Positions 7,516 to 53,040 of a DNA stretch of 53,040 bases are shown here, in pieces; the stretch's first letter is position 1; every line of letters starts with the position of its first letter. The stretch comes from Escherichia phage PO103-1. The notes under the pieces are model-generated. The model saw only the letters and a program-made list of their open reading frames with translations, made no database searches and was not told where the DNA came from. Both the position numbers and the translations under genes were made by a program. The stretch is from the sequence record NC_079175.1; one strand, given 5' to 3'.

Positions 7516-8670
7516 TTATGGTGTTTCAGTGAAAACTACAGACGCAGATGTGGCTACAGCCTTCTTGTCAATGTCCAGTTCGATTGTAGCAATTCCAGTT
7601 GGACTTGCAGAAGTACCAATGAATAATGAATCAACCTGAACACCGTTAGTAGCGTCCATGATAGGCTTGAAACATTCTGACCAGATAACAGAATCACCTG
7701 GGTTCAAGGAGTTGATATACTCCATCATAGCCGTTTGCAACTGGCGTGCCGCATCGTTGGAACTAATATTAGAACCAGGGCGACGCTTGAATGTACCAGT
7801 TACATAAATGGTTGCATCTTCTGGACGACTGAACTTAATTTCGTGCGGATAGCCTTTACTATCGTAGATAGATACGGATGTAGTACCATGGGTAGGGACA
7901 CCGCCCGTTTTGGAGGAATAAATTCGACGAGCAATTTCGTCTTCTGTTCCACCCTCTACGACAACAAATACTGTACCCGAAGGCTGAGTCCCAATAGGAG
8001 CGCCGGTATCATTATCACGAATACGAATGTAAGAAAGATTAAGGTCAGCGAGTGCAGCGTAAATAGCTTCAACAAATGCTGAACCGCTGTGCGCAGTAGT
8101 TCTGTCACGGCGGATACGAAGTGCTGGGTCAGACTCATAATCCACACCTGTTTGCCCAATCTCTGGGTTGTTAACTGATTCCCAACCTGCGACTGTGGTA
8201 ACAATTTTATTAACAGTGTTAGCAGCAATGTAATATTCGCCAGACTCAGTTGCTACTGCCGTAACAGTTCCTGGAATAATACAATCATACTGTGTTTTGA
8301 AATTCATTGTCCCGTCACTGACAATAGAGCCAGCAGGGACAAGAGTGCCAGCCTGACCAGCACAGCGAACACCAACACGAGATGGCCAATTGACTAATCG
8401 CTTTGTGAAGGTTAGTTCGCAGATGTTGTCCAGACCAACCTTCTGCATTGCACCAGGACGATAGGCATTGAATACCATTTCAGCCTGTTGCCAACACTTA
8501 GAAATTTCTTCTGAAATAATTCCAATAACCTGTCCATCTGGGCCTTCTGGACTAATGTCGAAGTTGGCACCGAACACGCTACGGAATCTGCTATTAATGT
8601 GCGACACGATTTCTTGAACAGGCTTCTGTACGAACCCGTTTTCAGTCACGCCGTACTGGATTGTTGCCAT
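7516..8670 (-). CDS. Baseplate J-like protein
   Basis: 384 aa; size and position between W-like and I-like genes. Confidence 0.5.
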   Translation of the reverse strand: MATIQYGVTENGFVQKPVQEIVSHINSRFRSVFGANFDISPEGPDGQVIGIISEEISKCWQQAEMVFNAYRPGAMQKVGLDNICELTFTKRLVNWPSRVGVRCAGQAGTLVPAGSIVSDGTMNFKTQYDCIIPGTVTAVATESGEYYIAANTVNKIVTTVAGWESVNNPEIGQTGVDYESDPALRIRRDRTTAHSGSAFVEAIYAALADLNLSYIRIRDNDTGAPIGTQPSGTVFVVVEGGTEDEIARRIYSSKTGGVPTHGTTSVSIYDSKGYPHEIKFSRPEDATIYVTGTFKRRPGSNISSNDAARQLQTAMMEYINSLNPGDSVIWSECFKPIMDATNGVQVDSLFIGTSASPTGIATIELDIDKKAVATSASVVFTETP

Positions 8671-9017
8671 GTTAAGTAATCCTCAAGACTTCCATAATCT
8701 GAGATAGCAATGAATGAAACTCTTACTTCACGCTCACGGAAGTCAGCATCAATATTTATAGAGATAAGTTGTTGAACACCTGGGGTGCTTCGAATGACGT
8801 TGGCGATGGCTGCTTCAATATCAGCAGTTCTGACAGTCTTAGTGAAGATTCCCTCGAACCAAGGGAGGCCAGTGGTCGTGTCATGTTTCCATTCTCCGAA
8901 CACTGTTAATAATCTGCACTTAACTATTTGAGCAACCTCTTCTACACCACCGACTCTGGTTGCACCACGACCAATAATAATATCGTGGTTAGAATCTAAC
9001 AGTAAGTTTCCAGCCAT
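8646..9017 (-). CDS. Baseplate wedge protein (gpW/gp25-like)
   Basis: 123 aa; position between spike and J-like genes. Confidence 0.4.
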   Translation of the reverse strand: MAGNLLLDSNHDIIIGRGATRVGGVEEVAQIVKCRLLTVFGEWKHDTTTGLPWFEGIFTKTVRTADIEAAIANVIRSTPGVQQLISINIDADFREREVRVSFIAISDYGSLEDYLTWQQSSTA

Positions 9018-20194: not shown

Positions 20195-21202
20195 TCAGAT
20201 GCCGGAGTTGATGGAGATTGCTGCCGGATACATCGCTTGGAAGCCAGCGAAACGACCACGACCAGGAACTTCATAAACCAGGCCATGAAGCTGTACCGGT
20301 TGCCAGGTCAGCGGCAGAGGTTCACGCAGACGGAAAGTGCGGTTGCCCATTGCATTGCGGCAAACAACAACGAAGCAATCAGAACCAGCGTCGCCGTGAC
20401 CTTTGATTGCGTTCAGACCCTTGATTTTATCGCGGGAGTTGATGAACTGGTTGTTGTCAATGAAGAACTGACCAATCGTCTTGTCAGACTGCTCAGAACG
20501 TGCAGTATTGAAGATGTACTGCTCATGCTCGACAGGCATCCAGATTTCGTCCGGGCGCATGATTTTCAGAGTAGAAGCATACATTGCAGACACAGCAGTG
20601 GTTAGGTCGGCAATAACTTCGGTCGGGGTCTTCTCGGCCCACTTGGTAGAACCACCAGCACCAGCAGCAACAGTTGCTTTGGTAATGTCTGGGTTTTCGA
20701 AGAAGCCAACAAAGCCGTTAGCTTTATCACCGTACCATGCAGCAGAGTTAACATACTGCTCGTAACCACGAATAGCAGCATTCGCTTTACGAGTTTCCAG
20801 CGGGAGGCCAGTAACAGCAGCAGACGCTACTTCGTCGATATCGTAGTCGAATGCAGTACCAACTGATTTAACAGGGATGCTGTATTCTTTACCAGAAATG
20901 CTGGACTTCGGCAGGTCGGTTGCACGGGCATTAATTACCTGAGCTTTACCAACATGGTTGTAAGAACGGTAGGTCAGAGTGTTTACGCCAGCGCCACCAG
21001 TGGTGTCCACACCGAAAGCAGCACGCGCTTCCAGTTCTGGATACAGGGTGTCATAAGTTTGAGCTTCAATGAACTCAAGCTGGCGTTGAAAGAATACTGC
21101 ATCGTCGTCATTCAGGACAACAGTGCCAGAATCCTGAATACGGGTGATAGCGTCGTTCAGTTCAAATTCAGAACCGTCCGCCAGTTTAATCATCTTAGGC
21201 AT
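20195..21202 (-). CDS. Major capsid protein
   Basis: About 335 aa, after scaffold/decoration genes and flanked by hairpins; tracked ORF starts at TTG 21235, first ATG at 21202 (MPKMIKLADG). Confidence 0.55.
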   Translation of the reverse strand: MPKMIKLADGSEFELNDAITRIQDSGTVVLNDDDAVFFQRQLEFIEAQTYDTLYPELEARAAFGVDTTGGAGVNTLTYRSYNHVGKAQVINARATDLPKSSISGKEYSIPVKSVGTAFDYDIDEVASAAVTGLPLETRKANAAIRGYEQYVNSAAWYGDKANGFVGFFENPDITKATVAAGAGGSTKWAEKTPTEVIADLTTAVSAMYASTLKIMRPDEIWMPVEHEQYIFNTARSEQSDKTIGQFFIDNNQFINSRDKIKGLNAIKGHGDAGSDCFVVVCRNAMGNRTFRLREPLPLTWQPVQLHGLVYEVPGRGRFAGFQAMYPAAISINSGI

Positions 21203-21228
21203 GTAAATTAATCCGTTTTGTTTGATGA

Positions 21229-21249
21229 GGCGCAACCATTAATTGCGCC
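21229..21249 (-). other. Hairpin between the Ig-like extension stop and the capsid start
   Basis: 7-bp stem GGCGCAA/TTGCGCC with a 7-nt loop. Confidence 0.3.
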
Positions 21250-21257
21250 ATTGCAAC

Positions 21258-21563
21258 TTAAGCCTTCGGCGTAATGGTAATTTCTTTGGTCGCAGTTACG
21301 CTAGAGGTTGTTTTGTTTGTTGCCTTAATTGTAGCAGAAGTCTCTGTAGTCGTCTCATTCAAGACAGTCACAGTGCCGTTTGCCGCCACAGAAACACCAG
21401 TCACAGGAGGTGTAACAGCGAAGTTATAATCTGTTGCTGTAGAGTTCTCAAACTTGAACAGCTTGTCTACAGTTACAGTGGCATCAGTAGAAGACGCATC
21501 AGCCGTTACAACCCCAGCTACAGCAGATACTGTAGGAGCTGGAGGTGGCGTTACGGCTTTGGG
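21258..21563 (-). CDS. Putative -1 frameshift extension encoding an Ig-like domain
   Basis: About 100-codon stop-free frame with no ATG; slippery C_CCA_AAG two codons before the stop of 21551..22024; translation is Thr/Val/Ala-rich beta-strand-like. Confidence 0.45.
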   Translation of the reverse strand, partial: PKAVTPPPAPTVSAVAGVVTADASSTDATVTVDKLFKFENSTATDYNFAVTPPVTGVSVAANGTVTVLNETTTETSATIKATNKTTSSVTATKEITITPKA

Positions 21564-23098: not shown

Positions 23099-24383
23099 TT
23101 GCGTTACCCTTTTGGATGTTAGGAGGATTAGGATTTGGTTTGCCAAGGTCGCAAGTCCCGAACACGCCCGAATGGAACATGACTTCGTTTGCAACTTCGG
23201 TAGTAATAGTACCGTTGTTAACCAGCAGGTCAACAGCAAATGCCAAATCTTTAGCTCGCTTCGCTTTCTCAACGTTGGATTCAGGGAAGATGTCTAGCCA
23301 TTCGTAGCTATACTCTTCAATGCCAAAGTGCGCTTGGACAATCTTGTCTACCACATCTAAACGAGGGTCGAACACAGAAGTCTGCAAGCCTGTCAACAAG
23401 TCGATATAGTTTACGAGGTCAGATTCGCCCGTAGCATTCATACCGTCTGGAGATGCAGAAAGGAAACGTGTAGCCGGAATACCAACTGCGGCAGCAACTA
23501 TCTTCAAGTATTCCCAAATCAAATCTTTCACACCAGACAGTGCAATTGACTTGGTGTCATACTTCTCAGTATTGTCGAGAATTAAGACATTATAAATACT
23601 CTTTGCCAGCTTCATAAGTTTGAAGCGCTTCATCACAGCAGCTTCACCTTCCGGTGATGTAAGCAGAGATTGTAAGCCTTCGACAGTTACCACATCAATG
23701 GTGGCTTCTTGGGCGAGGCTGGCGGCAGCAGCAGCAGTTGTGTAGAATTGGTCAATCGTTTTCAGCAGTGGAATAAGTACCGAATCGGAATACCACATGT
23801 TGCGTTGGAATTCGAACAGCGGTAGTTCAGTACCCTCGAACCGAAGGAAACGAGTGTAGTGGATATAGCCGGGATACCCAGCCAAAGTATAATACTCTGG
23901 CAAACCATAGTGAGGACTCAAAGGGTCCAGAACCATAGTCCCTGCGGCAAATAAGCGTGAGCGGTCAATAACTCTCATGGATTTAATACATCCAGTCTTC
24001 AAGTTATCCAGTCGCAATGGTGTATCAAGTTTGCCCGTACCTTTCAGGTCGAGCAGAACAAATGAAGTACCATACAATCTGGCCCATTGATATGCCTCAC
24101 GGAACAGCTTACGAATACGAAGTTTCTTATCCGCTTTGCGTCCTTCTTCACTATCAATATGTCGCCACTTACGCGTCATGTCTTGAGGAATGACGGTACA
24201 CACTTTCTGTGCAACCCAATCCTCACGGAAGCGGTTCATAAGTTCGCGATAGTTCGCGTTCTTGTTTGAGAAAGTCCACTGGTTAAAAGTGGACTTATCT
24301 GCCTGACCGCCCAACCCCGTTACAAGGTTTTCTAACCCATCTGCAACTTTAACAGAAAGATTGTTTTTCTTCTTGGAAGTCAT
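23067..24383 (-). CDS. Portal protein
   Basis: 438-aa ORF immediately downstream of the large terminase. Confidence 0.55.
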   Translation of the reverse strand: MTSKKKNNLSVKVADGLENLVTGLGGQADKSTFNQWTFSNKNANYRELMNRFREDWVAQKVCTVIPQDMTRKWRHIDSEEGRKADKKLRIRKLFREAYQWARLYGTSFVLLDLKGTGKLDTPLRLDNLKTGCIKSMRVIDRSRLFAAGTMVLDPLSPHYGLPEYYTLAGYPGYIHYTRFLRFEGTELPLFEFQRNMWYSDSVLIPLLKTIDQFYTTAAAAASLAQEATIDVVTVEGLQSLLTSPEGEAAVMKRFKLMKLAKSIYNVLILDNTEKYDTKSIALSGVKDLIWEYLKIVAAAVGIPATRFLSASPDGMNATGESDLVNYIDLLTGLQTSVFDPRLDVVDKIVQAHFGIEEYSYEWLDIFPESNVEKAKRAKDLAFAVDLLVNNGTITTEVANEVMFHSGVFGTCDLGKPNPNPPNIQKGNASEAKPKPGSA

Positions 24384-24607
24384 TATTTCTTCCTTAGAAT
24401 AGTTCCATTACCCTTAACAATTTGAATGTTGTCGGAGGTGTGGAGTCGCAGATTTGACTCGTGCTTTAACTTAACACAGTCGCTCTCTGTGGTAGAAACT
24501 GCCTCAATCACACATAAAATGTTTCCTTCCAAATCCTGAATCTGGAAGGAGTTGTTCTTGCGTGAGCGGGCATCTAAACGAGTGATAACCGCCATATTTA
24601 CATCCAT
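24383..24607 (-). CDS. Hypothetical small protein
   Basis: 74-aa ORF between terminase and portal. Confidence 0.35.
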   Translation of the reverse strand: MDVNMAVITRLDARSRKNNSFQIQDLEGNILCVIEAVSTTESDCVKLKHESNLRLHTSDNIQIVKGNGTILRKK

Positions 24608-26643
24608 GCGGAGTAGTTGGCACTTGGGCCTGAGAATTCGATTGCAACCATATCTGAAACGTTATCGACACAATCGTCGTGTCCAGTACCACTACCCAAA
24701 GAAGTGAATCCAAGTATTTCACGTCTAACGTGGTCGATGTGTTCATGACCAGCAGGGAAGAATATTCTCTTTTGCGAGAAATATGGGATTGCGTTAAGGA
24801 ATCGAGTTACCTTGTCGTTACCATTAATGCCATCACGAGGCAATGGTAAAACTCGGACACTCCCATCTCTGATAAATTGTTGGTTCAAGAATTGTCCGGC
24901 AGACTTGTCTTCCATGTACAGTGCACGAGGAATACAACCTACACATTTCAAGTCCAACTTGTTGCATTTGTTCCAGAAGTCGATGATAGCAGTCTTGAGT
25001 TCTGGAGTTTCAAACTTACCGAGCATAATATCTAAGCAATAAACATCACGCTCTTTAGTCACGCCCCAATGCTTAAGGACCGAATAATCAGAATAAGATT
25101 TGGCAGTTGATGCCGTATCCGCTGTAATAAAACTTCTGACTATGCGACTTCTGTCGAAAACGTCTGGTTCATACTCTTGCCACCAATCTTCTTTGATAAG
25201 GCCGTGGCCTTGTGCAGATGGGTCGCCAGCATACTGTGAATTGTATGTGTATGGGTTAGACTCTTTCATTGCCTCCAGAGATTCTAAGCTCTTACGTGAA
25301 GGCCATAATGCAGACTTCTCTTCCTTCCTGTTCAAATTATACAGAATGGGAATAGCATGAGTGTAGTTCTGCTTCTTGATTAACTTATCATACCATTCAG
25401 CACTCCCAACACCTTTCTCAATAATCGCTGGGATATTGAGATAATGGTATTTGTCAGAAGAGCCACCACGGAGTATGTAACCAACTAAATCCTGGTCGTG
25501 AACTCGCTGCATGATGATAACCATTGGTGTACGGGCACACTTAATTTGGTTTCCGTACGAATCAGTTATGCAACCATCGTTGGCAAGACGGGACATAAAG
25601 GTGTTATCAAATCGGTCGTTGATTTCTGCTCGAACTGTGTCAGAGTAGGCATCTTTCGGTTTGATAACGTCATCCACCACGAAACAACCGGAGTATTTTG
25701 CAACAAGAAGTCCAGCACCTTTACCAGTTAGCTTACCACCAGTAGGTACTGCGTGCATAACTCCAGCTTTGGTTGTACCCCAGCGTTCAAGAGAACGTTT
25801 GTTAGGGTCGATTCTCACCTTCGGGAATATGCGTTGGAACAGTGGGTCCATCATTACAGCACGGATGTAACCACTCGACTCAAGAACAACGTCTTCTGCA
25901 TACGAGGTGATAATATTATGGCTTGATTCATTGTGGCAAAATGAATACAAGGGCAATGCAATACTCATAAGCTGAGTCTTAGAGTGTCGTGGAGGAATGG
26001 TCACTATTAAGCGGTCAATCTCACCATCAACAACCTTTTGACCAACACTGAATATCACATCGTGAAAGTCTTGTGCTTGAAATGGAAATCCCATCTGAAT
26101 ATGGAACTGCCATTTACCAAAGGCTTCGAAACTTTTCATCAAGATTTTGCGAACACGTTCTGCAACCTTGGCAGGGATTACAGTTGGGTCCACGTTATGT
26201 GGGTCATGCAGAATCTTGTCTACAAGTTCGTCGGTGTTATCGTATTCCGAGTTTGGCTCTTCCAAAGTAGAACCCACAACACGGTCAGTAACACCTGCTT
26301 GAATACCTTTCTTCAACTCGTCTGCATAGGCAGTTGAGTCTTTCTTGTCGCCAGAGCGAAGACGCTCAAGTTGTGCTCTGAAAACGGAACGCAATACAGC
26401 ATCGTTTTCAAGACCCTGGCCTTCTAACTCTGCTTGAATTTGTTCTTCATAGCTGTCAACTATTGCAGTATTTTCTGAAATATATCGACGGAGCAATGGC
26501 AAAGATAGAATACAGAATCTTTCTCTTGAGACTTTTAATACGTCACCGTAGTGCTTGGCAAGATACGAGGCTACTGTATCATTAAACTCCGGTCCGAGGT
26601 CATCAGTCTTTGACATTGATTCGTTCTCTTTGTTTTTAATCAC
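24598..26643 (-). CDS. Terminase large subunit
   Basis: 681 aa; ATPase-like segments (PPRHSKTQ, CFVVDDV) and C-terminal nuclease-like motifs (SFITADTA, GTGHDDCVDNVSD). Confidence 0.8.
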   Translation of the reverse strand: MIKNKENESMSKTDDLGPEFNDTVASYLAKHYGDVLKVSRERFCILSLPLLRRYISENTAIVDSYEEQIQAELEGQGLENDAVLRSVFRAQLERLRSGDKKDSTAYADELKKGIQAGVTDRVVGSTLEEPNSEYDNTDELVDKILHDPHNVDPTVIPAKVAERVRKILMKSFEAFGKWQFHIQMGFPFQAQDFHDVIFSVGQKVVDGEIDRLIVTIPPRHSKTQLMSIALPLYSFCHNESSHNIITSYAEDVVLESSGYIRAVMMDPLFQRIFPKVRIDPNKRSLERWGTTKAGVMHAVPTGGKLTGKGAGLLVAKYSGCFVVDDVIKPKDAYSDTVRAEINDRFDNTFMSRLANDGCITDSYGNQIKCARTPMVIIMQRVHDQDLVGYILRGGSSDKYHYLNIPAIIEKGVGSAEWYDKLIKKQNYTHAIPILYNLNRKEEKSALWPSRKSLESLEAMKESNPYTYNSQYAGDPSAQGHGLIKEDWWQEYEPDVFDRSRIVRSFITADTASTAKSYSDYSVLKHWGVTKERDVYCLDIMLGKFETPELKTAIIDFWNKCNKLDLKCVGCIPRALYMEDKSAGQFLNQQFIRDGSVRVLPLPRDGINGNDKVTRFLNAIPYFSQKRIFFPAGHEHIDHVRREILGFTSLGSGTGHDDCVDNVSDMVAIEFSGPSANYSAWM

Positions 26644-31623: not shown

Positions 31624-31869
31624 TTACAGTTGAGTGATAACTAGGGAGAAGTCCAGGTCGTTCATACAAGAGATTAACTCTTGCTCATTGACGACAGGAC
31701 CAGATAAAGTTTTAATGAATGCCTGATACACTGAATTGGTAGCAGAATCACTTCCAAATAATGTTTCAGCATTCTCGGTAATTACAGACAGCACAGCTTC
31801 CCGTGCGTCTTCACCTTTCTTGACAAAATGGAAATGGTCCACTTTGTCGAATATAGATACAACAACCAT
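31624..31869 (-). CDS. Hypothetical protein
   Basis: 81-aa ORF. Confidence 0.4.
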   Translation of the reverse strand: MVVVSIFDKVDHFHFVKKGEDAREAVLSVITENAETLFGSDSATNSVYQAFIKTLSGPVVNEQELISCMNDLDFSLVITQL

Positions 31870-33851
31870 TAGTGAATCTCTGCGTAGTTATCGCCAAATT
31901 GTACATCACATGCACAATCACGATTGAGTTTAAGTTCTTTGTTGGTCCGGTCCATTGCTTCATTAAGCAAGTCCGTCCACAAATCACGGAAACCTTTCTT
32001 AACTTGGAGAATCAATTCATCATGGAATTGTCCAGACAGAAGCGGGTCACAGCCCCAACGTTCATTACAAATTGCAATGATGTTGTTACACCAGATATCA
32101 AACACATATGCACCAGTACCCTGACACAATGTGGAGAATCGGTCTTTCTCTGTACGCAACGAATACCAGAATTTGTTTACTGGATTCTGTTGCCACATCT
32201 GACCATCAACTGTGATAACTTTGGTGTTTGCAGCAATCTCTTTAATAGACCAGTTCAAATCCCAATATGCTTTGTGCAGTCGTGCAGCAGTAGTCTGGTC
32301 ACAGCCAGCAGAACGAGCTACAGTTGGCACACCAGCACCATACTGACAAGCATAGTTTGTGGTCTTAAACATTGGACGTTGTTTACACTTCTTAATCCCG
32401 TCCTTGTGGTCCTGAGATTCCTGTTCTGTAATAAATCCACCAATTACGCCGATTGCAAGGTGGGCATCATAGTCTGGTGCCAACTGCTTCTTAACGTATT
32501 CAGGGTCATACATCCACTGGAAGTGGTGTTTACAACGGTCTTCCAGTGAGCACAAGTCAGAGCCTAACTGTTCGTAGTCTTCACGCCACGCTTCCAGCAT
32601 TGAACGCAGTTCTTCACCGCCAAATACACGAATAGAAGGGAGGTTAACAAGTTCGCGATGTTTAAGGCGTAAAGTATTGGTAAGGCCACCGCATCGTGCA
32701 GTAAGGAACCCATCTTCATCGACGTCGCGAAGGAAGCCATTAACAACAGACAGACGGTGTTTATACACGCCCATCCCAATAAGATGTTGAATACCAGAGT
32801 CGGGGTTTCTTTCCGCCAGCTTATGCAAGCTCGGACATATTTCAGGATTGCCATCTTCATCCTTCACAGTGATTTGTGGAATCTGGCGAGTTTCACCTGT
32901 TTCCTTGTTACGGTCAAACTTAAAGGTTTCCGGTTCCCAGCCTAAGCTGAACAACCAGTCTTTAATTTGCACATGAGAGCCAGCGTTAGGATTCTTATAA
33001 CCTTTAAGAACCTTGATAGCCAGGTCTGGGTCTTTCCAGTCCAAACCGTTTGCATCACAAATAGCTTTCCATTTGATGCCAGCGGAAGACAATTGTCCGT
33101 TCAACTTGTGGCATTTAGCTGGACGGGTTTTGATAACATATTCTGGAATACGTGGCATTGATGCTTCCAATGCGTCCGTCTTCTCTTTAATCATTGGTTC
33201 CAGCTTGGCCTTAAATGCCAATGCCTTCTCAATGTTCAACTTCCAGCGAGTACGTTGTTGAATAACTTGTTGACGAGCTTTTGTCATCAGATATTCAACG
33301 AAGCGCTTAACTTCGCTAGGAGATTTATAAATCTTCAAGAGTTGAATGTATTGCTGTTCCCACAGCTTCAACTGAATCTTGCAGTCTTCCATCACACGAT
33401 GGTTGTACTCTTCTTGAGTTTGATTTTCCCAATCTTCAATGACTGGTTTTGGCACACCAAACTCTTCGCCGTAACCCTCTAAGCCATGCTTAACACGACG
33501 AGGTTGCAAATACCAGCTGATAAACAAAGTATCAATTAAGGTACATTTTGAAACGTCGTAACCAAGGAACCTTAGTGCTTCAAAGTCAAAGGTTGCGCCG
33601 TTGTGCATGATTAGTGTTGGGCCTGTATCCAGAAATGCCTGGATAGATTTTCTGTCGGTCCATTCTATTACAGTTTCTTCACGAGTCAGAACATCAATAT
33701 ATCCGATGTTGTGAAGACGTGGTGCAGCTTGCTTACGCATTTGCTCCAACAGGCCAGTTGTTTCAATGTCACTGGCATACATATTTTCCCAAGGATACAA
33801 CACAGTATGGCTCCAATGGATTGGTGAGGACCACGCTGGTGGGCGAACCAT
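31869..33851 (-). CDS. DNA polymerase, family A, with 3'-5' exonuclease
   Basis: Exo I DIETTGL; motif B-like K...FKTTNYACQYG; motif C-like QFHDELIL. Confidence 0.85.
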   Translation of the reverse strand: MVRPPAWSSPIHWSHTVLYPWENMYASDIETTGLLEQMRKQAAPRLHNIGYIDVLTREETVIEWTDRKSIQAFLDTGPTLIMHNGATFDFEALRFLGYDVSKCTLIDTLFISWYLQPRRVKHGLEGYGEEFGVPKPVIEDWENQTQEEYNHRVMEDCKIQLKLWEQQYIQLLKIYKSPSEVKRFVEYLMTKARQQVIQQRTRWKLNIEKALAFKAKLEPMIKEKTDALEASMPRIPEYVIKTRPAKCHKLNGQLSSAGIKWKAICDANGLDWKDPDLAIKVLKGYKNPNAGSHVQIKDWLFSLGWEPETFKFDRNKETGETRQIPQITVKDEDGNPEICPSLHKLAERNPDSGIQHLIGMGVYKHRLSVVNGFLRDVDEDGFLTARCGGLTNTLRLKHRELVNLPSIRVFGGEELRSMLEAWREDYEQLGSDLCSLEDRCKHHFQWMYDPEYVKKQLAPDYDAHLAIGVIGGFITEQESQDHKDGIKKCKQRPMFKTTNYACQYGAGVPTVARSAGCDQTTAARLHKAYWDLNWSIKEIAANTKVITVDGQMWQQNPVNKFWYSLRTEKDRFSTLCQGTGAYVFDIWCNNIIAICNERWGCDPLLSGQFHDELILQVKKGFRDLWTDLLNEAMDRTNKELKLNRDCACDVQFGDNYAEIH

Positions 33852-38051: not shown

Positions 38052-38144
38052 GTGGACGAGGTTGGATTCGAACCAACGACACATCTGTCGAACAGATTGC
38101 TCTACCTGACTAAGCTCTGGAGCAGACCTTCTGAGCTACTCGTC
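38052..38144 (-). ncRNA. tRNA-like element (possible degenerate or unusual tRNA)
   Basis: Perfect 7-bp acceptor pairing GGACGAG/CTCGTCC, canonical UAGCUCAG and GGUAGAGC D-arm pieces, T-arm GUUGG-UUCGAAU-CCAAC; but about 24 extra nt in the D region and a 5-nt anticodon-position loop. Confidence 0.35.
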
Positions 38145-39017
38145 CAAAAATTGGGTGGGTTTTGGTAACGCAGGTTTTCCCGAACTGCGAGGCTTGTAGA
38201 ATCAGTGAGCCGCCTGTTTGGTATCTTCGGCCTGCCGTGGATTGATGGTCCCGACTCACTTCATCTCAGGTACGAGGCACTACTTTGCGAGTGCAAGCAG
38301 GTGTTGAACCCAAGTACCAACAGGCAACCTAACTTATCCCACCTTCATGGGCATCGTTGGTTTGAGCAGTTTATTTCCATGCTCAGGGCAACTCACTTTA
38401 GGGTGAATTAGGTTACGCAGTGCAGCTTCGAAGTCGCTGCCACAGGTTTGAGGTTCCTGTGTGGAGGGAAATCCAGAGGAGCACTTCCCCAAGGAGTTAC
38501 GTTTCAAATTGGCATAGCTTCTCACACCAAACCAATTGAAGACATTCCAGTGTGCTCGTCCGTCCTCTAGAAATATCCAACTGCATAATTAAGTTTGTAC
38601 TCTGTCACATCCCCACGCGCACTGAGGGACTTAAGCCTGCATTGCATCGCAGAATACAAATTAATTATTGCTCCGATTTATTAATCACATCTCGAAGCCA
38701 CAATGCGCCAAATTTGGTTACGTGGGATTGGAAGACCACGGAGAGAACTTAAATTTAATTAAGCTGCAACTCGCATTTCAGAATCATTTGCATTTATTTT
38801 AAATGAATAAAACAGCCGCATGATAACGAATGAAAACTACTTCAATGAACACTCTTGTCTGGGCCATGAGCTTGGGCATCGGCCTACCTCCCAACTCTAA
38901 TCACAAGAATGCTCATTGAAGCCCACTCACTCTGGAATGGGTTCAAGGCAGCACCGGAAAACTTCCAGTGCATGCCAGATCGATTTAGCTTAGTCTCTCA
39001 AGTTTGCCATCGGCAAC

Positions 39018-39356
39018 TTAGAATACCGGAGCTTCTTCAACAGCAGCTTCGGCAGCTTCGGCAACACTTGCGTCAGCAACTTTAGCTTCTTTCGGAGTAT
39101 CGAACTTAGTACGCTCAACTTCCGGCTCACCAGCTTCAACCCACGGCAGGTAGAATGCCAGGAACTGCTCGATGGTGTTCTTCTGCATGGAGCGAGAACG
39201 GTCGATAGCGCCAACGGTGTTCAGGTACGCTTCGGCAGCTTTCTCAATTTTAGCACCGTTTTCCAGTTTGAAGTCATGTGCATTACACTCTGCTTCGGTC
39301 AGGAACAGGGAACCATCGTTAGCTTCGTACTGAGTTACGGTTACAATCTTAGCCAT
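39018..39356 (-). CDS. Hypothetical early protein with acidic C-terminus ...EEAPVF
   Basis: 112-aa ORF, first gene after the GC-rich non-coding block. Confidence 0.5.
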   Translation of the reverse strand: MAKIVTVTQYEANDGSLFLTEAECNAHDFKLENGAKIEKAAEAYLNTVGAIDRSRSMQKNTIEQFLAFYLPWVEAGEPEVERTKFDTPKEAKVADASVAEAAEAAVEEAPVF

Positions 39357-39437: not shown

Positions 39438-39454
39438 TCCAACTAATGTTTCAG
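39438..39454 (-). promoter_or_regulatory. Early-region conserved motif copy (minus sense ctgaaACATTAGTTGGA)
   Basis: About 80 nt upstream of 39018..39356. Confidence 0.35.
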
Positions 39455-40762: not shown

Positions 40763-41403
40763 AGGAACTCTCCAATTTTCGATTCAGTGTTTGTGACTTC
40801 TCTTCTCATCTTTTGGCCCAGGAACAGGCCACAGGGTAGCGCAGGAAGGCCGAAAATCGGGCCGCTGCCTACCGTTTGTGTCAATTCTGGATAACTGCAT
40901 TGGCGAAGGGTTACTCCCGTTAGGGTGCGATACGCTAATCACATGAGTGTTGTCGCCTTGCGGCTCAGGCGTGTCACAGAGGCTTTGCAACCCTTCCCAA
41001 TACATTCACCCAATCCACCTGCTTTGGCATAGCTGGTGGCGCGGTTTTGTGCGGATTATGCCACTCTAAGCCCTGTTTGTCCGACTTCCTCAGAGCACCA
41101 GCAGCTTGTGGCACAAACCTATTTTCGAATGACTAACATAAGCATGAGGCATAACCCTCTAATTATTCAGCCCTAACAGCTTGCTTATTTAGTTCCAATT
41201 CATCCCAATACATCGCCTATAACAAGTGAATAGCTTTTCTGCGAAGAAGTATTCCGGCCCTATGGCCTATGTTAAAAGATAAATGTAATATGATGGAAAC
41301 ATTCCATCGAAAAGAACTTTGTAGAACGAATCGAACGTTCTCACACGCCTTGGTACCAGACGGACTACCTAGTTACAAAGTTCTTATCTGATGTTGTTTC
41401 AAT

Positions 41404-41420
41404 TCCAACTAATGTCGAAT
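41404..41420 (-). promoter_or_regulatory. Early-region conserved motif copy
   Basis: attcgACATTAGTTGGA at the edge of the 40763-41408 non-coding block. Confidence 0.3.
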
Positions 41421-41585
41421 GTCTTTCTTGCAAACAGGACAAGTGATAAATCTATATGCGAAATATCCTCGGTCATTCTTACCTGTGTATATCTTTAAGT
41501 CCGAGAATTCATAAGACACAACAGAAGCACATAACCGACATTGGCGTGTGAAGGTTACTGTATCTTTTTCCAGAACTTTAATCAT
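41409..41585 (-). CDS. Small zinc-ribbon protein
   Basis: About 59 aa from ATG with GGAG 6 nt upstream; CRLC...CPVC pairs; the motif copy overlaps its RBS. Confidence 0.45.
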   Translation of the reverse strand: MIKVLEKDTVTFTRQCRLCASVVSYEFSDLKIYTGKNDRGYFAYRFITCPVCKKDIRH

Positions 41586-41590
41586 TTCAT

Positions 41591-41608
41591 CTCCAACTAA
41601 TGTTTCAG
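41591..41608 (-). promoter_or_regulatory. Early-region conserved motif copy
   Basis: ctgaaACATTAGTTGGAG; its GGAG doubles as the RBS of the zinc-ribbon gene. Confidence 0.35.
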
Positions 41609-41731
41609 AATTATTCCAATATTCCAAACAAAAAGAATAATAAGAATAAATTAAATAAATGAAGAAAGTGCTTGACACCCATTTGGCGATAAGTGTATAA
41701 TGCCTTTCTTCCCTAAGTGGTCAGAATCAAA

Positions 41732-41748
41732 TCCCACTAATGTTTCAG
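41732..41748 (-). promoter_or_regulatory. Early-region conserved motif copy
   Basis: ctgaaACATTAGTGGGA in an intergenic stretch. Confidence 0.35.
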
Positions 41749-45321: not shown

Positions 45322-45696
45322 TTAGAACGGAATGTCGTCGTCGAAGTCTTTCGGCTCGTTCGGGTTATAATTGCTCTGCTGCTGTTGTTGAGTAGGAGCT
45401 TGCTGTTGCGCAGAAGGTTGCTGGCGTTGCTGTTGCTGTTGAGCGGCAGCTTGAGGTTGAGCTTTGGCTTTAGCTTTCTCTTCACGCTTACGCATCATTT
45501 CATCAACCTGTTCTTGGGTCATGATGGTTAATGCAAGTGAGGTAAACTCATTACCATTTGCTTGCTTATTCCAGCCAGATACCCAATACCAGATTCCGTC
45601 AACGTTAATACGTCCACGAATGTCGGGATGTTTTGGGTCTTTCTTGAAGCCGTTAGGACCGATAATGCCAGTGTTTACATCTGAATATTGTGCCAT
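45322..45696 (-). CDS. Small protein carrying an SSB-like C-terminal tail
   Basis: Gln-rich linker then NEPKDFDDDIPF, nearly identical to the E. coli SSB C-terminal tip as I recall it; N-terminal domain too short for a full OB fold. Confidence 0.55.
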   Translation of the reverse strand: MAQYSDVNTGIIGPNGFKKDPKHPDIRGRINVDGIWYWVSGWNKQANGNEFTSLALTIMTQEQVDEMMRKREEKAKAKAQPQAAAQQQQQRQQPSAQQQAPTQQQQQSNYNPNEPKDFDDDIPF

Positions 45697-45771: not shown

Positions 45772-45794
45772 TATCCAACTAGTGCTAGATTAAT
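45772..45794 (-). promoter_or_regulatory. Early-region motif copy, extended GATTAATC subfamily
   Basis: gattaatctagcACTAGTTGGAt about 75 nt upstream of 45322..45696. Confidence 0.35.
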
Positions 45795-46162: not shown

Positions 46163-46184
46163 ATCAACTAATGTTAGATTAATC
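46163..46184 (-). promoter_or_regulatory. Early-region motif copy, extended GATTAATC subfamily
   Basis: gattaatctaACATTAGTTGAt about 30 nt upstream of the DUF4326-like gene. Confidence 0.35.
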
Positions 46185-49553: not shown

Positions 49554-49574
49554 TCACATGCAACTAATGATAAA
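49554..49574 (-). promoter_or_regulatory. Early-region conserved motif copy
   Basis: tCATTAGTTGCATGTG at the lower edge of the non-coding repeat region. Confidence 0.3.
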
Positions 49575-49602: not shown

Positions 49603-49762
49603 CTGCCAAATAGACGAATTTTGTCACAATTAAACATGCACCATTAATTACAGGTTTACTCCCATACTTAACGTATTTGGCACATTAAGATTGGAGCAAG
49701 CAGGTACGGAAAACCGACCATGTACAGCATAATAAAACAAATTAAATAAAGGGTTTTATCCC

Positions 49763-49779
49763 AATATTGTCACAATATT
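49763..49779. promoter_or_regulatory. Palindromic operator-like site AATATTG-tca-CAATATT
   Basis: Perfect 7-bp inverted repeat with 3-bp spacer, followed by TACATGC. Confidence 0.4.
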
Positions 49780-50010
49780 ACATGCGATGATAAAGCCTTC
49801 GCTTGGCTGGAAGCCAGTATTCATGCGGGTTGCAAGAATATTGGGTTAATGCTGATACAGCTATTACATGCGAAATTGGCACAAATACTGTTACAAAATT
49901 AACATGCCAGATTGGTAGACGATTGTATCTTCGAGGTGATTAGTCCTCTAACAATTCTGCCACATTCCAACATGCCAATTTGTAGCAATATTTACATGCC
50001 ATACTGCGAC

Positions 50011-50027
50011 AATATTGTCACAATATT
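50011..50027. promoter_or_regulatory. Palindromic operator-like site AATATTG-tca-CAATATT
   Basis: Identical palindrome; partial copies near 48-62, 49617-49637 and 50192-50208. Confidence 0.4.
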
Positions 50028-50407
50028 TGTTGCTCAAAATCGGGGCGGGCTACGGGATTAGTTTCGCAGCTTTGCTCCGACTCTTCTCTTCTTTCGAATT
50101 CTGATTGAAAGAAAGAAGCATGTCCAAAAGTTCCAATATTATCAAAGTTATCTCCCGGCTTGTGGGTGGGCCTTTATAATAGGAGATGGAGCAATATTGT
50201 CGCAATTGAACATGCTATAGGTGAAGTACAAGTTTCGAATAGATATTCCTACTCTAAGTCATGGTTGCTGGAACTGTAGGTGGCCTACCTAGGGAGTTCA
50301 ATGATTGCCACATCATTACAACACTGTAACTCAAAGCTGACATGCTGAATGTTTCTAGAATGATTCAACATGACATGCGGAATATTTCTCCGTATTCTTT
50401 TACTTCA

Positions 50408-50427
50408 CATCCAACTAATGTTACAAC
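50408..50427 (-). promoter_or_regulatory. Early-region conserved motif copy
   Basis: gttgtaACATTAGTTGGATG between the RNAP-adjacent small gene and the non-coding region. Confidence 0.35.
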
Positions 50428-50495
50428 TGGCTACAATATTGAAGTCAGCTCTAAGATTAATTGGAACAAGAAAAGGGAGCCGAAGCTCCCAAGTA

Positions 50496-50732
50496 TCAGA
50501 ACGGTATCTCTGTATCAAAGAATCCAGAATTGTGCAAATATGCGTGCAATAATACATGCGATTCTTGCTTATATTCTGCTAACAATTCTAAGAAGTCTTT
50601 AGTCTCCTCCACTGTAGGACGAGATAAATTGTTCATGTCACAGGTGTGATGAGGATTGAAACAGTTTTCGATTTGATTGATTTGCATGGTATTCATTGTA
50701 GTCTCCAAGTAGTTGTGGTCATCCTTGACCAA
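50496..50732 (-). CDS. Hypothetical small early protein with C-terminal ...DTEIPF tail
   Basis: 78-aa ORF immediately downstream of the RNA polymerase gene. Confidence 0.4.
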   Translation of the reverse strand: MVKDDHNYLETTMNTMQINQIENCFNPHHTCDMNNLSRPTVEETKDFLELLAEYKQESHVLLHAYLHNSGFFDTEIPF

Positions 50733-50738
50733 TTAATA

Positions 50739-52679
50739 TTATTGACAGAAGTAGTAAGCGTGTTCGCTCATCAGAAGCTCTTCGGTTACGATGTTCTCAT
50801 GATACATCTGAATGCCACCAAGTTGCTTAGACAGATTCTCGAATTGATTGTTGGTTACAAAGATTTCAACATATGCTGCACGAATAACTTCCATCATACG
50901 TGGAGCATCTGCCAAACAGCAACGGAAACAATCATGGATTGAAGTGAAGCCACGAAGACCAGCTTCTTTAGCTTTAACTGCAACAGTACGAGCAACAAGT
51001 GCATCAATACCTTGAATGTAGTTAACAACGAAAGTACGCTTGAATTCTTCTTTAGTTGGATTGGATTCACGAATGGTCCAAGGCTTATTCTCCTGAATCT
51101 GACCAAAGATAACACGAGTTTGGCTGTCAACACGAATGCTGAATGCCTCACAGATTTCACGAGATGGGAAGCAAGGCTTCATTACAACCTGACCATCAGT
51201 GTGACGGTATGTGATGTACTCTTTACCAAGTTCAACACAACGGTTGTATGCAGCATCAGCAGCTTTCTCAATGAACATGTTAATCTTAGCACCCAATGCG
51301 TTATGGATTGCTTCCACACACAGTTCAGCAAATGCCTCAGCTTTCTCCATAGGAATCTGGAGAGCTTCTGTCATGTAGCTAATGAAGTCAGATGAACCAG
51401 TTAATGCAGCTTTACCACCACCGTATTGAATGGCCATGTAAGGAGTTTTGATAAACTTACGACCAGCTTTCGGATTCAAGAATTCATCCATGATTTCAGC
51501 AGATGGTTTCATTGAAGAACGGTCGAGTAACTTCAACAGCTCACGAAGACTCAACTGGTATGGGTCAGATGCTTTAGTCTCAGAATCAACCAGACCTGTT
51601 GCACGAGCCATTTCCATGTTACCAGCAATGAATGCCAGATATTGAGTACCAGAACATTTAGCATCTAATCCAAAGCCTACACGAGAATCGCATTCACCTG
51701 TAGTCTCAAACTTGAACCAATCCAGAGCCAGACGAACATAAGTGAATGGCTTAGAAGGACGTTCAGCTTTAGGCATGTTCATCATGCGAGCAAGTGAACC
51801 AGCTGGATTCTGAGCAACATAAGTTAAACGCTTAGCACTGCACCATTCACCACCAGAAATATCTTCCAGCTCTGCCATGAACATGTTGTATGCAATGGTA
51901 GTAGAACCATCTTCGTTAAACTTCTTAACGATGTTCTCAACATTGTGAGAATACAAGCAACGAGCAAAGTCAGAGGATTGTGGGTTAGGACCAGCACATG
52001 CTACATGATACAGGCGACCACGGTTATCAGCAAAGTAGTCAGAATACAGTGTGTCCTGATTCATCATTGCTACAGCATTGTTCCAAACATGGAGTTCAGT
52101 CTGGATTGCTTCTGGCATCTGCAAGCCACCGTAGGTACGTTGTTCAAGCATGGACTGGATGATGCGAACCATCTCAGTCTCCACATGGTACTCAGTATCT
52201 TGCAGGAATTCGATTGCAGCTTTCAGAGTCTTGGATGGCTTAACTTTGCCACCTTTAACGAAAGGCTTGCGACGAGATTCAGATGTAACACGCTCAGTGA
52301 ATGGCACTGCGGTGTCTTTGGTTGTAACCAGTTCAACCCATGTGTCAGTCTGTTGGAATGACTTGTCTTCGTTCATGGTTATGAAGCCAAAGTGCTTAGC
52401 CAGACCAATGAGGTTGATAGCTGGGTCAACATAGTGCATTGCTTTCAAATCGTTGTTGTAGCGGTTGGCATCAGCAATAGAAGCAGAAGCCAGCTCAACC
52501 ATCGCAATGGCAGGAACAACGTCGTCACGTGTGAAAGACGTCATCATCTTGAATATGGCTAAGGCAGCAATAGCACAAGTCTGAGGCTGCATATAGTTCT
52601 GCTTCTCTTTGGCACGGTATACCAGAGCAGTGATAGCAGGAACAACAGATTTGATAGTTTGAGTGGTGATAGTAGTCAT
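50739..52679 (-). CDS. Single-subunit DNA-dependent RNA polymerase (T7-like, compact)
   Basis: 646 aa; GLDAKCSGTQYLAFIAG, RKFIKTPYMAIQYGGG and SIHDCF parallel T7 RNAP DGSCSGIQHFSAML, RSVTKRSVMTLAYGS and HDSFGT; GGAG 8 nt upstream of ATG. Confidence 0.85.
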   Translation of the reverse strand: MTTITTQTIKSVVPAITALVYRAKEKQNYMQPQTCAIAALAIFKMMTSFTRDDVVPAIAMVELASASIADANRYNNDLKAMHYVDPAINLIGLAKHFGFITMNEDKSFQQTDTWVELVTTKDTAVPFTERVTSESRRKPFVKGGKVKPSKTLKAAIEFLQDTEYHVETEMVRIIQSMLEQRTYGGLQMPEAIQTELHVWNNAVAMMNQDTLYSDYFADNRGRLYHVACAGPNPQSSDFARCLYSHNVENIVKKFNEDGSTTIAYNMFMAELEDISGGEWCSAKRLTYVAQNPAGSLARMMNMPKAERPSKPFTYVRLALDWFKFETTGECDSRVGFGLDAKCSGTQYLAFIAGNMEMARATGLVDSETKASDPYQLSLRELLKLLDRSSMKPSAEIMDEFLNPKAGRKFIKTPYMAIQYGGGKAALTGSSDFISYMTEALQIPMEKAEAFAELCVEAIHNALGAKINMFIEKAADAAYNRCVELGKEYITYRHTDGQVVMKPCFPSREICEAFSIRVDSQTRVIFGQIQENKPWTIRESNPTKEEFKRTFVVNYIQGIDALVARTVAVKAKEAGLRGFTSIHDCFRCCLADAPRMMEVIRAAYVEIFVTNNQFENLSKQLGGIQMYHENIVTEELLMSEHAYYFCQ

Positions 52680-52749
52680 TTGTAAGTCTCCAAGATTGTG
52701 TATGATTTAACTGAAACGGATTATAATAGCGTAGCCATTACACAATTCA

Positions 52750-52770
52750 CTTCCAACTAATATCACAAAC
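52750..52770 (-). promoter_or_regulatory. Early-region conserved motif copy upstream of the RNA polymerase gene
   Basis: gtgatATTAGTTGGAAG about 75 nt upstream of the RNAP ATG; a TATAAT hexamer lies about 30 nt further downstream. Confidence 0.35.
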
Positions 52771-52910
52771 CTGTGCCATTGTTACAACAGCACGGAGACT
52801 TTGACCTTGACCCATAAGCGAAGCGCCTAACTTGGTGTTGTTTGAAAGCCGATAGGCTGTAGGAAAAAGTTGGAGTAGGGACCGTATTTAAGTCCGATAG
52901 GACGTTGGGC

Positions 52911-52974
52911 TTCCCCCCCTCCTCGGAGATAAAAATTTTAAAATAATAATGTCACAACTTCCCCTCCTCGCTGG
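52911..52974. repeat. Two C-rich direct repeats (T)TCCCCTCCTCG
   Basis: Copies at 52911-52926 and 52958-52974, near the right end. Confidence 0.4.
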
Positions 52975-52975
52975 C

Positions 52976-53040
<65 letters not shown>

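Follow-up and report, generated by a model that had tools for sequence, protein, structure and literature searches.

The genome of Escherichia phage PO103-1 (NC_079175.1), a stretch of 53,040 bp referred to here as the window, carries all of its large open reading frames (ORFs) on the minus strand. The ORF considered here, at 50739..52679 on that strand, encodes 646 amino acids (aa) plus a stop codon, exactly where a preliminary description made from the sequence had placed it. That description read the product as a single-subunit RNA polymerase (RNAP) of the T7 kind with recognizable catalytic motifs, and our searches bear this out: the ORF matches the Pfam family RNA_pol (PF00940) with E=3e-18 and 66.3 bits (cutoff 22), and the PHROG 414 'RNA polymerase' profile with E=1.4e-97 over profile positions 154-816 of 816. 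It is the orthologue of ST32 gp1 (99.7% identical) and of phiEcoM-GJ1 gp01 (92% identical), and it is at least 99% identical to proteins named 'RNA polymerase' in about 19 GenBank phage records. The ST32 and phiEcoM-GJ1 proteins are 646-648 aa long and are encoded by the first gene of genomes with the same organization, such that there is no substantive difference from the locus described here: it is one and the same gene, found in an isolate closely related to theirs. The sequence also reveals a GGAG ribosome-binding site 8 nt 5' of the ATG (52688..52691, minus strand), and the same Shine-Dalgarno site is given for ST32 ORF1 in Table 2 of PMC6266442. The ORF almost certainly encodes a functional T7-family RNAP of the Chaseviridae, its activity being predicted.

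On the 5' side of the gene, the predicted physical left end of the genome, also the start of a direct terminal repeat, falls at ...CCTATCG|GACTTAAATACGGTCCC (52881..52895, at about 52893; minus strand), about 212 nt from the RNAP ATG, as judged by homology with the starts of the 4HA13, Y2 and PM1 records. By homology with these phages and with ST32, the RNAP gene is predicted to be the first gene after the left end, in agreement with its earlier placement at the head of the genome. Homology would also put it inside a direct terminal repeat of 2.3-3.1 kb, as it lies within the repeat in all four relatives with defined ends: 4HA13 (3,120 bp, a PhageTerm prediction), Y2 (2,608 bp) and PM1 (2,665 bp), both exact repeats in the record, and PYps23T (2,339 bp, determined experimentally). 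A position inside the repeat would give two copies of the gene in virion DNA. On the 3' side, a small conserved ORF (50496..50732, minus strand), an orthologue of ST32 gp2 that matches the hypothetical family phrog_20790, is probably co-transcribed with the RNAP gene, and a strong intrinsic terminator, GGGAGC-TTCG-GCTCCC followed by TTTTCTTGTT (50465..50490, minus strand), closes this RNAP-gp2 unit. An equivalent hairpin and T-tract follow the RNAP gene of Erwinia phage Y2, and a simple scan found no such terminator in ST32, 4HA13, PM1 or PA_03; since it was found in the window and Y2 and not in the other four genomes scanned, we do not claim that this element is conserved. An ORF-poor stretch of about 0.8-1.1 kb follows the terminator.

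The reading frame is complete. An in-frame stop lies 10 codons 5' of the RNAP ATG. With the upstream frame closed and the genome end only about 212 nt of leader away, a missing N-terminal exon could not be accommodated. A search of a collection of 5.8 billion proteins returned 119 homologues, which from 83% down to about 35% identity are 626-670 aa long, many of them encoded on contigs of about 53 kb. One cluster is represented by a 704-aa protein (P0001) to which an unrelated upstream ORF has been fused in frame, and relatives of 811-901 aa carry low-complexity extensions that precede the same conserved N-terminus. The native length of this enzyme is 646 aa, and the ORF is not a fragment.

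Catalytic core and domain organization

The catalytic residues of T7 RNAP have clear equivalents in the PO103-1 enzyme. With T7 equivalents taken from PDB alignments and invariance counted in an alignment of 63 homologues, D339 (T7 D537, motif A), R407, K411 and Y419 (T7 R627, K631 and Y639, motif B) and H582-D583 (T7 H811-D812, motif C) are all invariant, as are D218, R220 and R222 within D218-N-R-G-R222, the counterpart of the T7 DxxGR element (D421-R425), and G420 (T7 G640, motif B) is at least 90% conserved. D339 and D583 are the predicted metal-binding residues. A sequence-only search of the PDB found T7 RNAP weakly (E=0.003), the match landing on the correct motifs (LDAKCSGTQY against T7 FDGSCSGIQH, and IHDCF against T7 IHDSF), and a family profile found it with E=1e-16, aligned over T7 317-851. 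The AlphaFold2 (AF2) model of the enzyme, with a predicted local distance difference test score (pLDDT) of 92.6 and a predicted template modelling score (pTM) of 0.86, adopts a right-hand, Pol-A-like fold whose nearest neighbours are phage and mitochondrial RNAPs. The profile and structure-prediction checks proposed in the preliminary description both confirm the family. The enzyme also retains a T7-type specificity loop, in T7 a beta-hairpin inserted in the fingers (739-770), with a predicted function: its beta-hairpin region, spanning aa ~500-545, falls on the T7 loop region in the alignment and is modelled with high confidence. The sequence of this loop is nearly invariant in homologues at least 60% identical to the PO103-1 enzyme and differs in distant clades.

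At 646 aa the enzyme is 237 aa shorter than T7 RNAP (883 aa), close to the difference of about 240 aa first estimated. The missing residues are spread over three places, with ~155-165 aa absent from the N-terminal domain, ~37 aa from the thumb (T7 ~350-386) and ~33 aa from the fingers (T7 ~586-620). The shortfall had been put down to a reduced N-terminal domain, which is indeed reduced, but the thumb and fingers contribute as well; the alignment to T7 that had been suggested for finding the missing domains leaves T7 1-316 unaligned and locates these two further deletions.

The domains follow one another along the minus strand. A compact N-terminal domain with a winged-helix-like topology (aa 1-~130; 52290..52679) comprises helices at 6-27, 32-46, 57-73, 76-81 and 87-96, a beta-hairpin at 99-111 and a helix at 112-118. 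It leads into a conserved basic linker (aa 131-165; 52185..52289) in which R136 is invariant and at which the profile alignment to T7 begins (T7 317). By eye, the linker matches T7 ~296-316, and the RRKPFVKGGKVKPSK sequence that it contains (aa 134-148) resembles T7 RRPLALVRTHSKK (~298-310). The short thumb (aa ~166-206; 52062..52184), with helices at 168-183, 190-193 and 196-205, is followed by the first part of the palm (aa ~207-355; 51615..52061), which carries the DxxGR element and motif A, and then by the fingers (aa ~356-499; 51183..51614), which carry motif B and lack the T7 ~586-620 insertion. The specificity-loop region (aa ~500-545; 51045..51182; T7 ~727-776) reads ...SIRVDSQTRVIFGQ...KPWTIRE and has strands at 506-510, 513-516, 522-525 and 534-537. 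The second part of the palm and the C-terminus (aa 546-646; 50739..51044) hold motif C and end in a conserved ...AYYFCQ.

The N-terminal domain deserves particular attention, as at ~130 aa, against ~300 in T7, it falls short of a full-size T7 N-terminal domain with its AT-rich recognition loop and subdomain H. We take the T7 limits to be 1-~325 for the N-terminal domain, which includes subdomain H, and 93-101 for the AT-rich recognition loop. The first ~160 residues of the enzyme were unaligned to T7 in the family-profile comparison. A profile of the N-terminal domain alone, compared with the T7 N-terminal domain in a T7 sequence that agrees with the PDB alignments wherever the two overlap, gave a weak match (E=0.05): aa 6-99 fall on T7 71-176, and T7 93-101, where the AT-rich recognition loop sits, is left as a gap. 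Searched against 1.84 billion representative proteins, the same profile found only 26 clusters, each made up of RNAP-like proteins (600-900 aa) or of fragments, and no T7-size canonical RNAPs; the domain is clade-specific at the sequence level. The conserved hairpin at 99-111 follows a helix and precedes another, the same order as the helix, hairpin (230-245) and helix of T7; the comparison is one of order and not a residue-level structural alignment, and the hairpin is a putative counterpart of the T7 intercalating hairpin. The domain is most likely a trimmed promoter-binding domain of T7 type that does without subdomain H, the AT-rich loop and T7 1-70. With these parts missing, the enzyme probably departs from T7 in its upstream promoter contacts and in the way it switches from initiation to elongation. 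The compact N-terminus is not family-wide, since the RNAP ORF of Aeromonas phage pAh6-C (Nefertitivirinae) is 843-855 aa long, with its RRK linker at about residue 350.

Among characterized enzymes, T7 RNAP (PDB 1cez, 3e2e and others) is 17% identical to the polymerase. In addition to the shorter thumb and the absent fingers insertion, we recognized no counterparts of the T7 AT-rich loop, residues 1-70 or subdomain H in the sequence, the C-terminus is YYFCQ where T7 has FAFA, and the gene, unlike that of T7, belongs to a myovirus and is predicted to lie within a long terminal repeat. N4 RNAPII (PDB 6dt7) is a heterodimer of gp15 and gp16 and is dependent on cofactors, whereas a single 646-aa ORF covers both parts here; the enzyme is structurally nearer to T7 RNAP than to N4 RNAPII and keeps the conserved specificity loop. 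The mitochondrial RNAPs (yeast Rpo41, PDB 6ymv; human POLRMT), at 16-17% identity, are about 1,200 aa long, with N-terminal extensions and initiation factors.

A repeated promoter-like motif

A repeat search of the window returned a 26-nt family with six copies in a single orientation. When 11-mers were ranked de novo by over-representation, with low-complexity ones set aside, CATTAGTTGGA came first in the window, in ST32 and in 4HA13 (RNAP 76% identical). The motif is about 20 nt long, with the core CATTAGTTGGAwGTGA. Allowing at most one mismatch, it occurs 13 times in the window against 1.15 +/- 1.03 expected, a count reached in 0 of 100 shuffles, and 12 of these 13 matches are on the coding strand. 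The coding to non-coding strand counts are similarly skewed in ST32 (13/1), 4HA13 (12/0), Y2 (7/0) and PM1 (8/1), and are 4/2 in Proteus PA_03 and 0/0 in pAh6-C. In ST32, where intergenic DNA makes up 11.6% of the genome, 10 of the 13 sites are intergenic, as are 7 of the 12 in 4HA13. A position weight matrix (PWM) trained only on the intergenic sites of 4HA13, Y2 and PM1 has the consensus cTT.aaCATTAGTTGGAwGTGAa; applied to the window, it places 11 coding-strand sites above the best opposite-strand score, nine of them between ORFs.

All 11 sites lie on the minus strand. Copy 1, TATTAGTTGGA|aGTGAA (52752..52762), stands 72 nt 5' of the RNAP start codon and is syntenic with sites at ST32 590, 4HA13 123 and PM1 185. 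Copy 2, CATTAGTTGGAtGTGAAG (50410..50420), comes directly after the terminator, with syntenic sites at ST32 2898, 4HA13 2706, PM1 2299, Y2 2228 and 12085/12153 in a Hafnia prophage. Further copies lie downstream of the early unit, where ORFs are few (49559..49569), between ORFs as a weaker match (46163..46173), and 77 nt 5' of the ORF starting at 45696, which is SSB by synteny (45774..45784; ST32 8235, 4HA13 6091, Y2 6897, PM1 6275). A cluster of three follows in an ORF-poor stretch (41732..41742, 41592..41602 and 41404..41414), all within 340 nt. The copy with the best PWM score (39438..39448) is 81 nt 5' of the ORF starting at 39356 and is syntenic with ST32 14577, 4HA13 12636 and PM1 13346. 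The last two are a copy inside a small ORF after the DNA polymerase gene (31753..31763) and a weaker one in the gap between the tape-measure-like and hub genes, 19 nt before the hub ORF (12164..12174; ST32 42142, Proteus PA_03 41276). Across four genera, sites with diverged flanks recur in synteny before RNAP, after the RNAP unit, before SSB and before a gp32-like gene, and a further one in the tape-measure/baseplate-hub gap.

Motif sharing and the near-invariant specificity loop coincide in the same clade, and the motif is absent from the pAh6-C subfamily, whose RNAP is ~35% identical. On a Hafnia alvei chromosome with a prophage that carries a homologue (RNAP 52% identical) the motif is again the top k-mer. 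Its seven copies are confined to the prophage and to the coding strand; two stand directly 3' of the RNAP gene, and the 10-kb host flank of the prophage holds none. A sigma-70-like -35/-10 pair is found near only one of the 11 sites in the window, and we rejected sigma-70 promoters as an explanation of the motif on this geometry. We did not find the motif string in any phage paper in the literature searched. The idea of such promoters is not new, however, because a study of PP101 had already proposed eight PHIRE-predicted consensus promoters for a Chaseviridae single-subunit RNAP, without experimental validation (Lukianova et al. 2020, PMC6989608). Its consensus, given as a figure, may or may not match the motif found here, and PM1, the sister phage of PP101, carries the CATTAGTTGGA motif. 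We consider it fairly probable that the motif, a candidate, is the promoter of this RNAP.

The phage genome and its neighbouring features

From 30000 to 53040 the window shares 94-95% nucleotide identity, across 82-87% of the length, with JL1, Bp7, ST32 and others, a similarity that fits the genus Carltongylesvirus; assignment to a species takes more than 95% over the full length. The Chaseviridae have double-stranded DNA genomes of 52-56 kb with genes on one strand (PMC12842549), a range and an arrangement within which the window falls (53,040 bp including a homopolymer of ~98 nt; a single coding strand). Contractile-tail genes accompany the single-subunit RNAP, in line with the myovirus-like structural module noted before: PHROG matches identify a tail sheath (16990-18438; phrog_205, E=1.6e-96), two baseplate wedge proteins (7516-8670, phrog_6; 8646-9017, phrog_120) and a baseplate hub (11038-12144; phrog_196). 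By these comparisons we assign the window to an ST32-like genome in the lineage given for ST32, Chaseviridae; Cleopatravirinae; Carltongylesvirus. Both ends of the window lie within one poly(A) run on the plus strand (1-34 and 52977-53040; 34 + 64 = ~98 nt when joined), about 85 nt outside the predicted terminal-repeat start, where ST32 has just TTTTTTTATTTT on the coding strand. A homopolymer at both ends indicates a circularized (collapsed) assembly broken inside the run, and its length is probably inflated by sequencing or assembly.

Several sequence elements accompany the terminal-repeat region. In the ~130 nt of leader from the genome end to motif copy 1 (52763-52893), the blocks AAATACGGTCCCTACTCCAACTTTTTC, AGCCTATCGGCTT and AACACCAAGTTAGGCGCTTCGCTTATG are invariant between ST32-type phages and 4HA13, a degree of conservation above that of the sequence coding for the RNAP (76% protein identity to 4HA13). 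By eye, the leader also contains TTGTAA-17-GATATT with a TG extension, which as a sigma-70 promoter is speculative only and not convincing. A virion-carried, N4-like RNAP was considered as an explanation of the missing host promoter discussed below, but nothing was seen to support it; the 4HA13 proteome supplement makes no mention of the RNAP, a weak negative. Downstream of the RNAP unit, the ORF-poor stretch 49617-50209 holds six to seven copies of the palindrome AATATTGTGACAATATT, often after GCATGT, a hexamer with 20 coding-strand occurrences, 12 of them within 49-51 kb. Copies related to AATATTGTGACAATATT occur at 48-64, 100-116, 284-300 and 52945-52961, in the non-coding DNA that adjoins the opposite end of the terminal repeat on its outer side. 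These putative elements could be sites for a dimeric protein acting in origin function, packaging or early-gene control. A CATGGTCGGTCAACTGTACCTG-like sequence is present in three copies (184-205, 220-241 and 49701-49722), two of them ~350 nt before the predicted repeat start and the third ~3.18 kb after it, near the end of a 4HA13-like 3.1-kb repeat; the copies may be a signal bracketing the terminal repeat.

Other ORF-poor stretches of 250-460 nt lie in the early/middle region (41006-41408, 41404-41742 and 38083-38989) and match ~1-kb gaps in the ST32 annotation (12089-13092 and 16414-17404). They contain no tRNA and no Rfam family, as tRNA and Rfam scans gave no matches in the window as a whole, and they may hold genes for small proteins or non-coding RNAs that the annotation lacks. 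In pAh6-C, a different repeat with the hairpin GGCTC-TWC-GAGCC-AAAAG (23714-25110 and 28889) has about five coding-strand copies, clustered in a ~1.1-kb non-coding stretch after the RNAP gene.

Among the virion genes of the window, a tape-measure-like protein of 1,223 aa (12211-15882, minus strand; phrog_19855) matches RecE-like exonuclease PHROGs at aa 438-636 (E=4e-19), which may reflect coiled-coil or compositional similarity, and endolysin and lytic tail fibre PHROGs at aa ~1025-1137, which suggests a lytic domain for cell-wall penetration. The DNA polymerase coding sequence of 4HA13 (18904-21493) is annotated as a join of two pieces with an HNH endonuclease gene (20431-20868) between them, an arrangement suggestive of insertion by a mobile intron or an intein-like element; the interruption is absent from the DNA polymerase ORF of the window (660 aa, 31869-33851).

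Compact homologues of the RNAP also occur in two prophages, the Hafnia alvei element described above (52% identical; NJFP02000002.1, 2.778-2.800 Mb) and one of Pseudomonas brenneri (38% identical; CP122540.1, 3.123-3.145 Mb). Both are flanked by host DNA and carry an integrase, a lysis cassette, Baseplate_J, sheath initiator and wedge genes, and an RNAP gene followed by many small genes. The presence of the homologues in integrated prophages implies that temperate Chaseviridae-like myoviruses with a single-subunit RNAP exist; the ICTV profile of the family describes the Chaseviridae as lytic (PMC12842549).

Proposed transcription scheme, alternatives and significance

The finding of this RNAP is in itself already known, given that the Chaseviridae have this gene as their hallmark and that its product is almost the same protein as the annotated ST32 gp1. 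The 2008 paper on phiEcoM-GJ1 reportedly states in its title that a myovirus carries a podovirus-like RNA polymerase, and the papers on ST32, PYps23T, 4HA13, PP101 and Tiny repeat the combination. What the preliminary description called an uncommon combination is therefore real, yet it is well known and a defining trait of the family in the ICTV profile (PMC12842549). Two recent papers that mine single-subunit RNAPs do not mention this family.

Based on the arrangement of the locus and the mapped motif copies, we propose that host RNA polymerase would first transcribe the two-gene RNAP-gp2 early unit, with the transcript stopping at the terminator (50490-50465). The phage RNAP would then transcribe the rest of the one-strand gene array from its own promoters of ~20 bp, with the core CATTAGTTGGAwGTGA, at 11 or more coding-strand sites that include the copy directly after the early terminator. 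T7-type promoters have a conserved block that reaches about +5, and on that analogy initiation would probably occur at the G following TTGGAw, and copy 1, upstream of the RNAP gene, would provide positive feedback on RNAP synthesis. Taken as a whole, and weighted toward the identity of the RNAP, this package of a phage polymerase with promoters of its own is very probably the best explanation of the locus.

Several observations weigh against this scheme. We found no convincing sigma-70 promoter in the ~212-nt leader from which the RNAP would first have to be expressed. Three to five motif matches per genome fall in coding sequence, and some of these are incidental, as GCA-TTA-GTT-GGA encodes Ala-Leu-Val-Gly. 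The late structural region (~27 kb) contains one weak copy only, such that late transcription would need read-through or a second, undetected promoter class. The experimental 2,339-bp repeat published for PYps23T (1-2339) begins immediately beyond motif copy 1, and its final base is also that of copy 2; mapped to the window, its boundaries are 52750 and 50410-50420, and the cores of the two copies are 2,342 bp apart. The motif could, from these boundaries, have a role in DNA end formation. The coincidence reflects either a different mode of end formation in PYps23T or template switching between near-identical copies during junction PCR. We considered whether terminal-repeat ends always lie at the motif, which is true for the PYps23T record but not for Y2, PM1 or 4HA13, and is not general. 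Finally, the ICTV profile lists the Chaseviridae RNAP promoters as unidentified (PMC12842549), and the literature searched holds no biochemical or structural study of a Chaseviridae RNAP.

That the 646-aa protein is self-sufficient and promoter-specific on ...CATTAGTTGGAw|GTGA..., through its ~130-aa N-terminal domain and specificity loop only, is a tentative proposal that we place somewhat short of an even chance. The alternative that the RNAP is a minimal, factor-dependent enzyme, unable by itself to find or open duplex promoters and in need of a cofactor such as the gp2-like protein or SSB, is less likely again. N4 RNAPII requires N4 gp2, and the mitochondrial RNAPs require Mtf1/TFB2M. The reduced N-terminal domain, ~130 aa with no recognizable AT-rich loop, makes such dependence plausible, whereas the enzyme's having kept its specificity loop, and the length and conservation of the motif, count against it.

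We similarly regard it as unlikely that the motif is something other than the promoter of this RNAP, namely a terminal-repeat or packaging signal, the site of a phage regulator or an unusual host-RNAP promoter, with the true promoters more degenerate. The PYps23T repeat bounded by copies 1 and 2 and the few late-region copies fit such a role, as do the copy before the RNAP gene itself, where a host promoter is expected, and a possible extended -10 element (TGTGATATT) that overlaps copy 1. A packaging signal, however, sits poorly with 11 or more dispersed, same-strand and mostly intergenic copies 19-85 nt 5' of genes, which fit promoters instead. Against end formation, the boundaries of Y2, PM1 and 4HA13 lie at CCTATCG|GACTTAAATACGG and several hundred bp beyond copy 2; a host promoter is countered by the single site of 11 with sigma-70 geometry, and a dimeric regulator by the absence from the motif of the dyad symmetry expected for its site. 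The motif also persists in an integrated prophage and is confined to it.

The last alternative, that a T7-size polymerase has been truncated or is decaying and that the ORF is what remains of it (a fragment, split gene or pseudo-enzyme), has next to no chance of being right: it would account for the 237 missing residues and for the PHROG 414 match beginning only at position 154, but every catalytic residue is invariant, a length of 626-670 aa is kept down to 35% identity, the N-terminal domain is conserved and confidently folded in the model, and the RNAP belongs to the core gene set of a phage family whose members are viable and lytic. A fragment or split gene is further refuted by the closed upstream frame, the ~212 nt between ATG and genome end and the conservation of length across the clade; the preliminary description had itself named a fragment, or the loss of catalytic residues, as grounds for abandoning its claim, and we find the length conserved and the residues intact.

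In summary, the compact polymerase of PO103-1 belongs to a clade of RNAPs about 27% smaller than T7 RNAP, and the domain map, in combination with a promoter consensus that has 11 mapped sites and is conserved across genera, makes the promoter question directly testable. Should it prove autonomous, the enzyme would appeal to synthetic biology and RNA manufacture as a small orthogonal polymerase, and it would be the smallest natural single-chain T7-family RNAP. Lacking the T7 AT-rich loop and subdomain H, it would on that reading also pass from initiation to elongation without the large refolding of the T7 type, and it would then offer a natural test, and a minimal model, of which parts of the T7 N-terminal domain promoter recognition needs.

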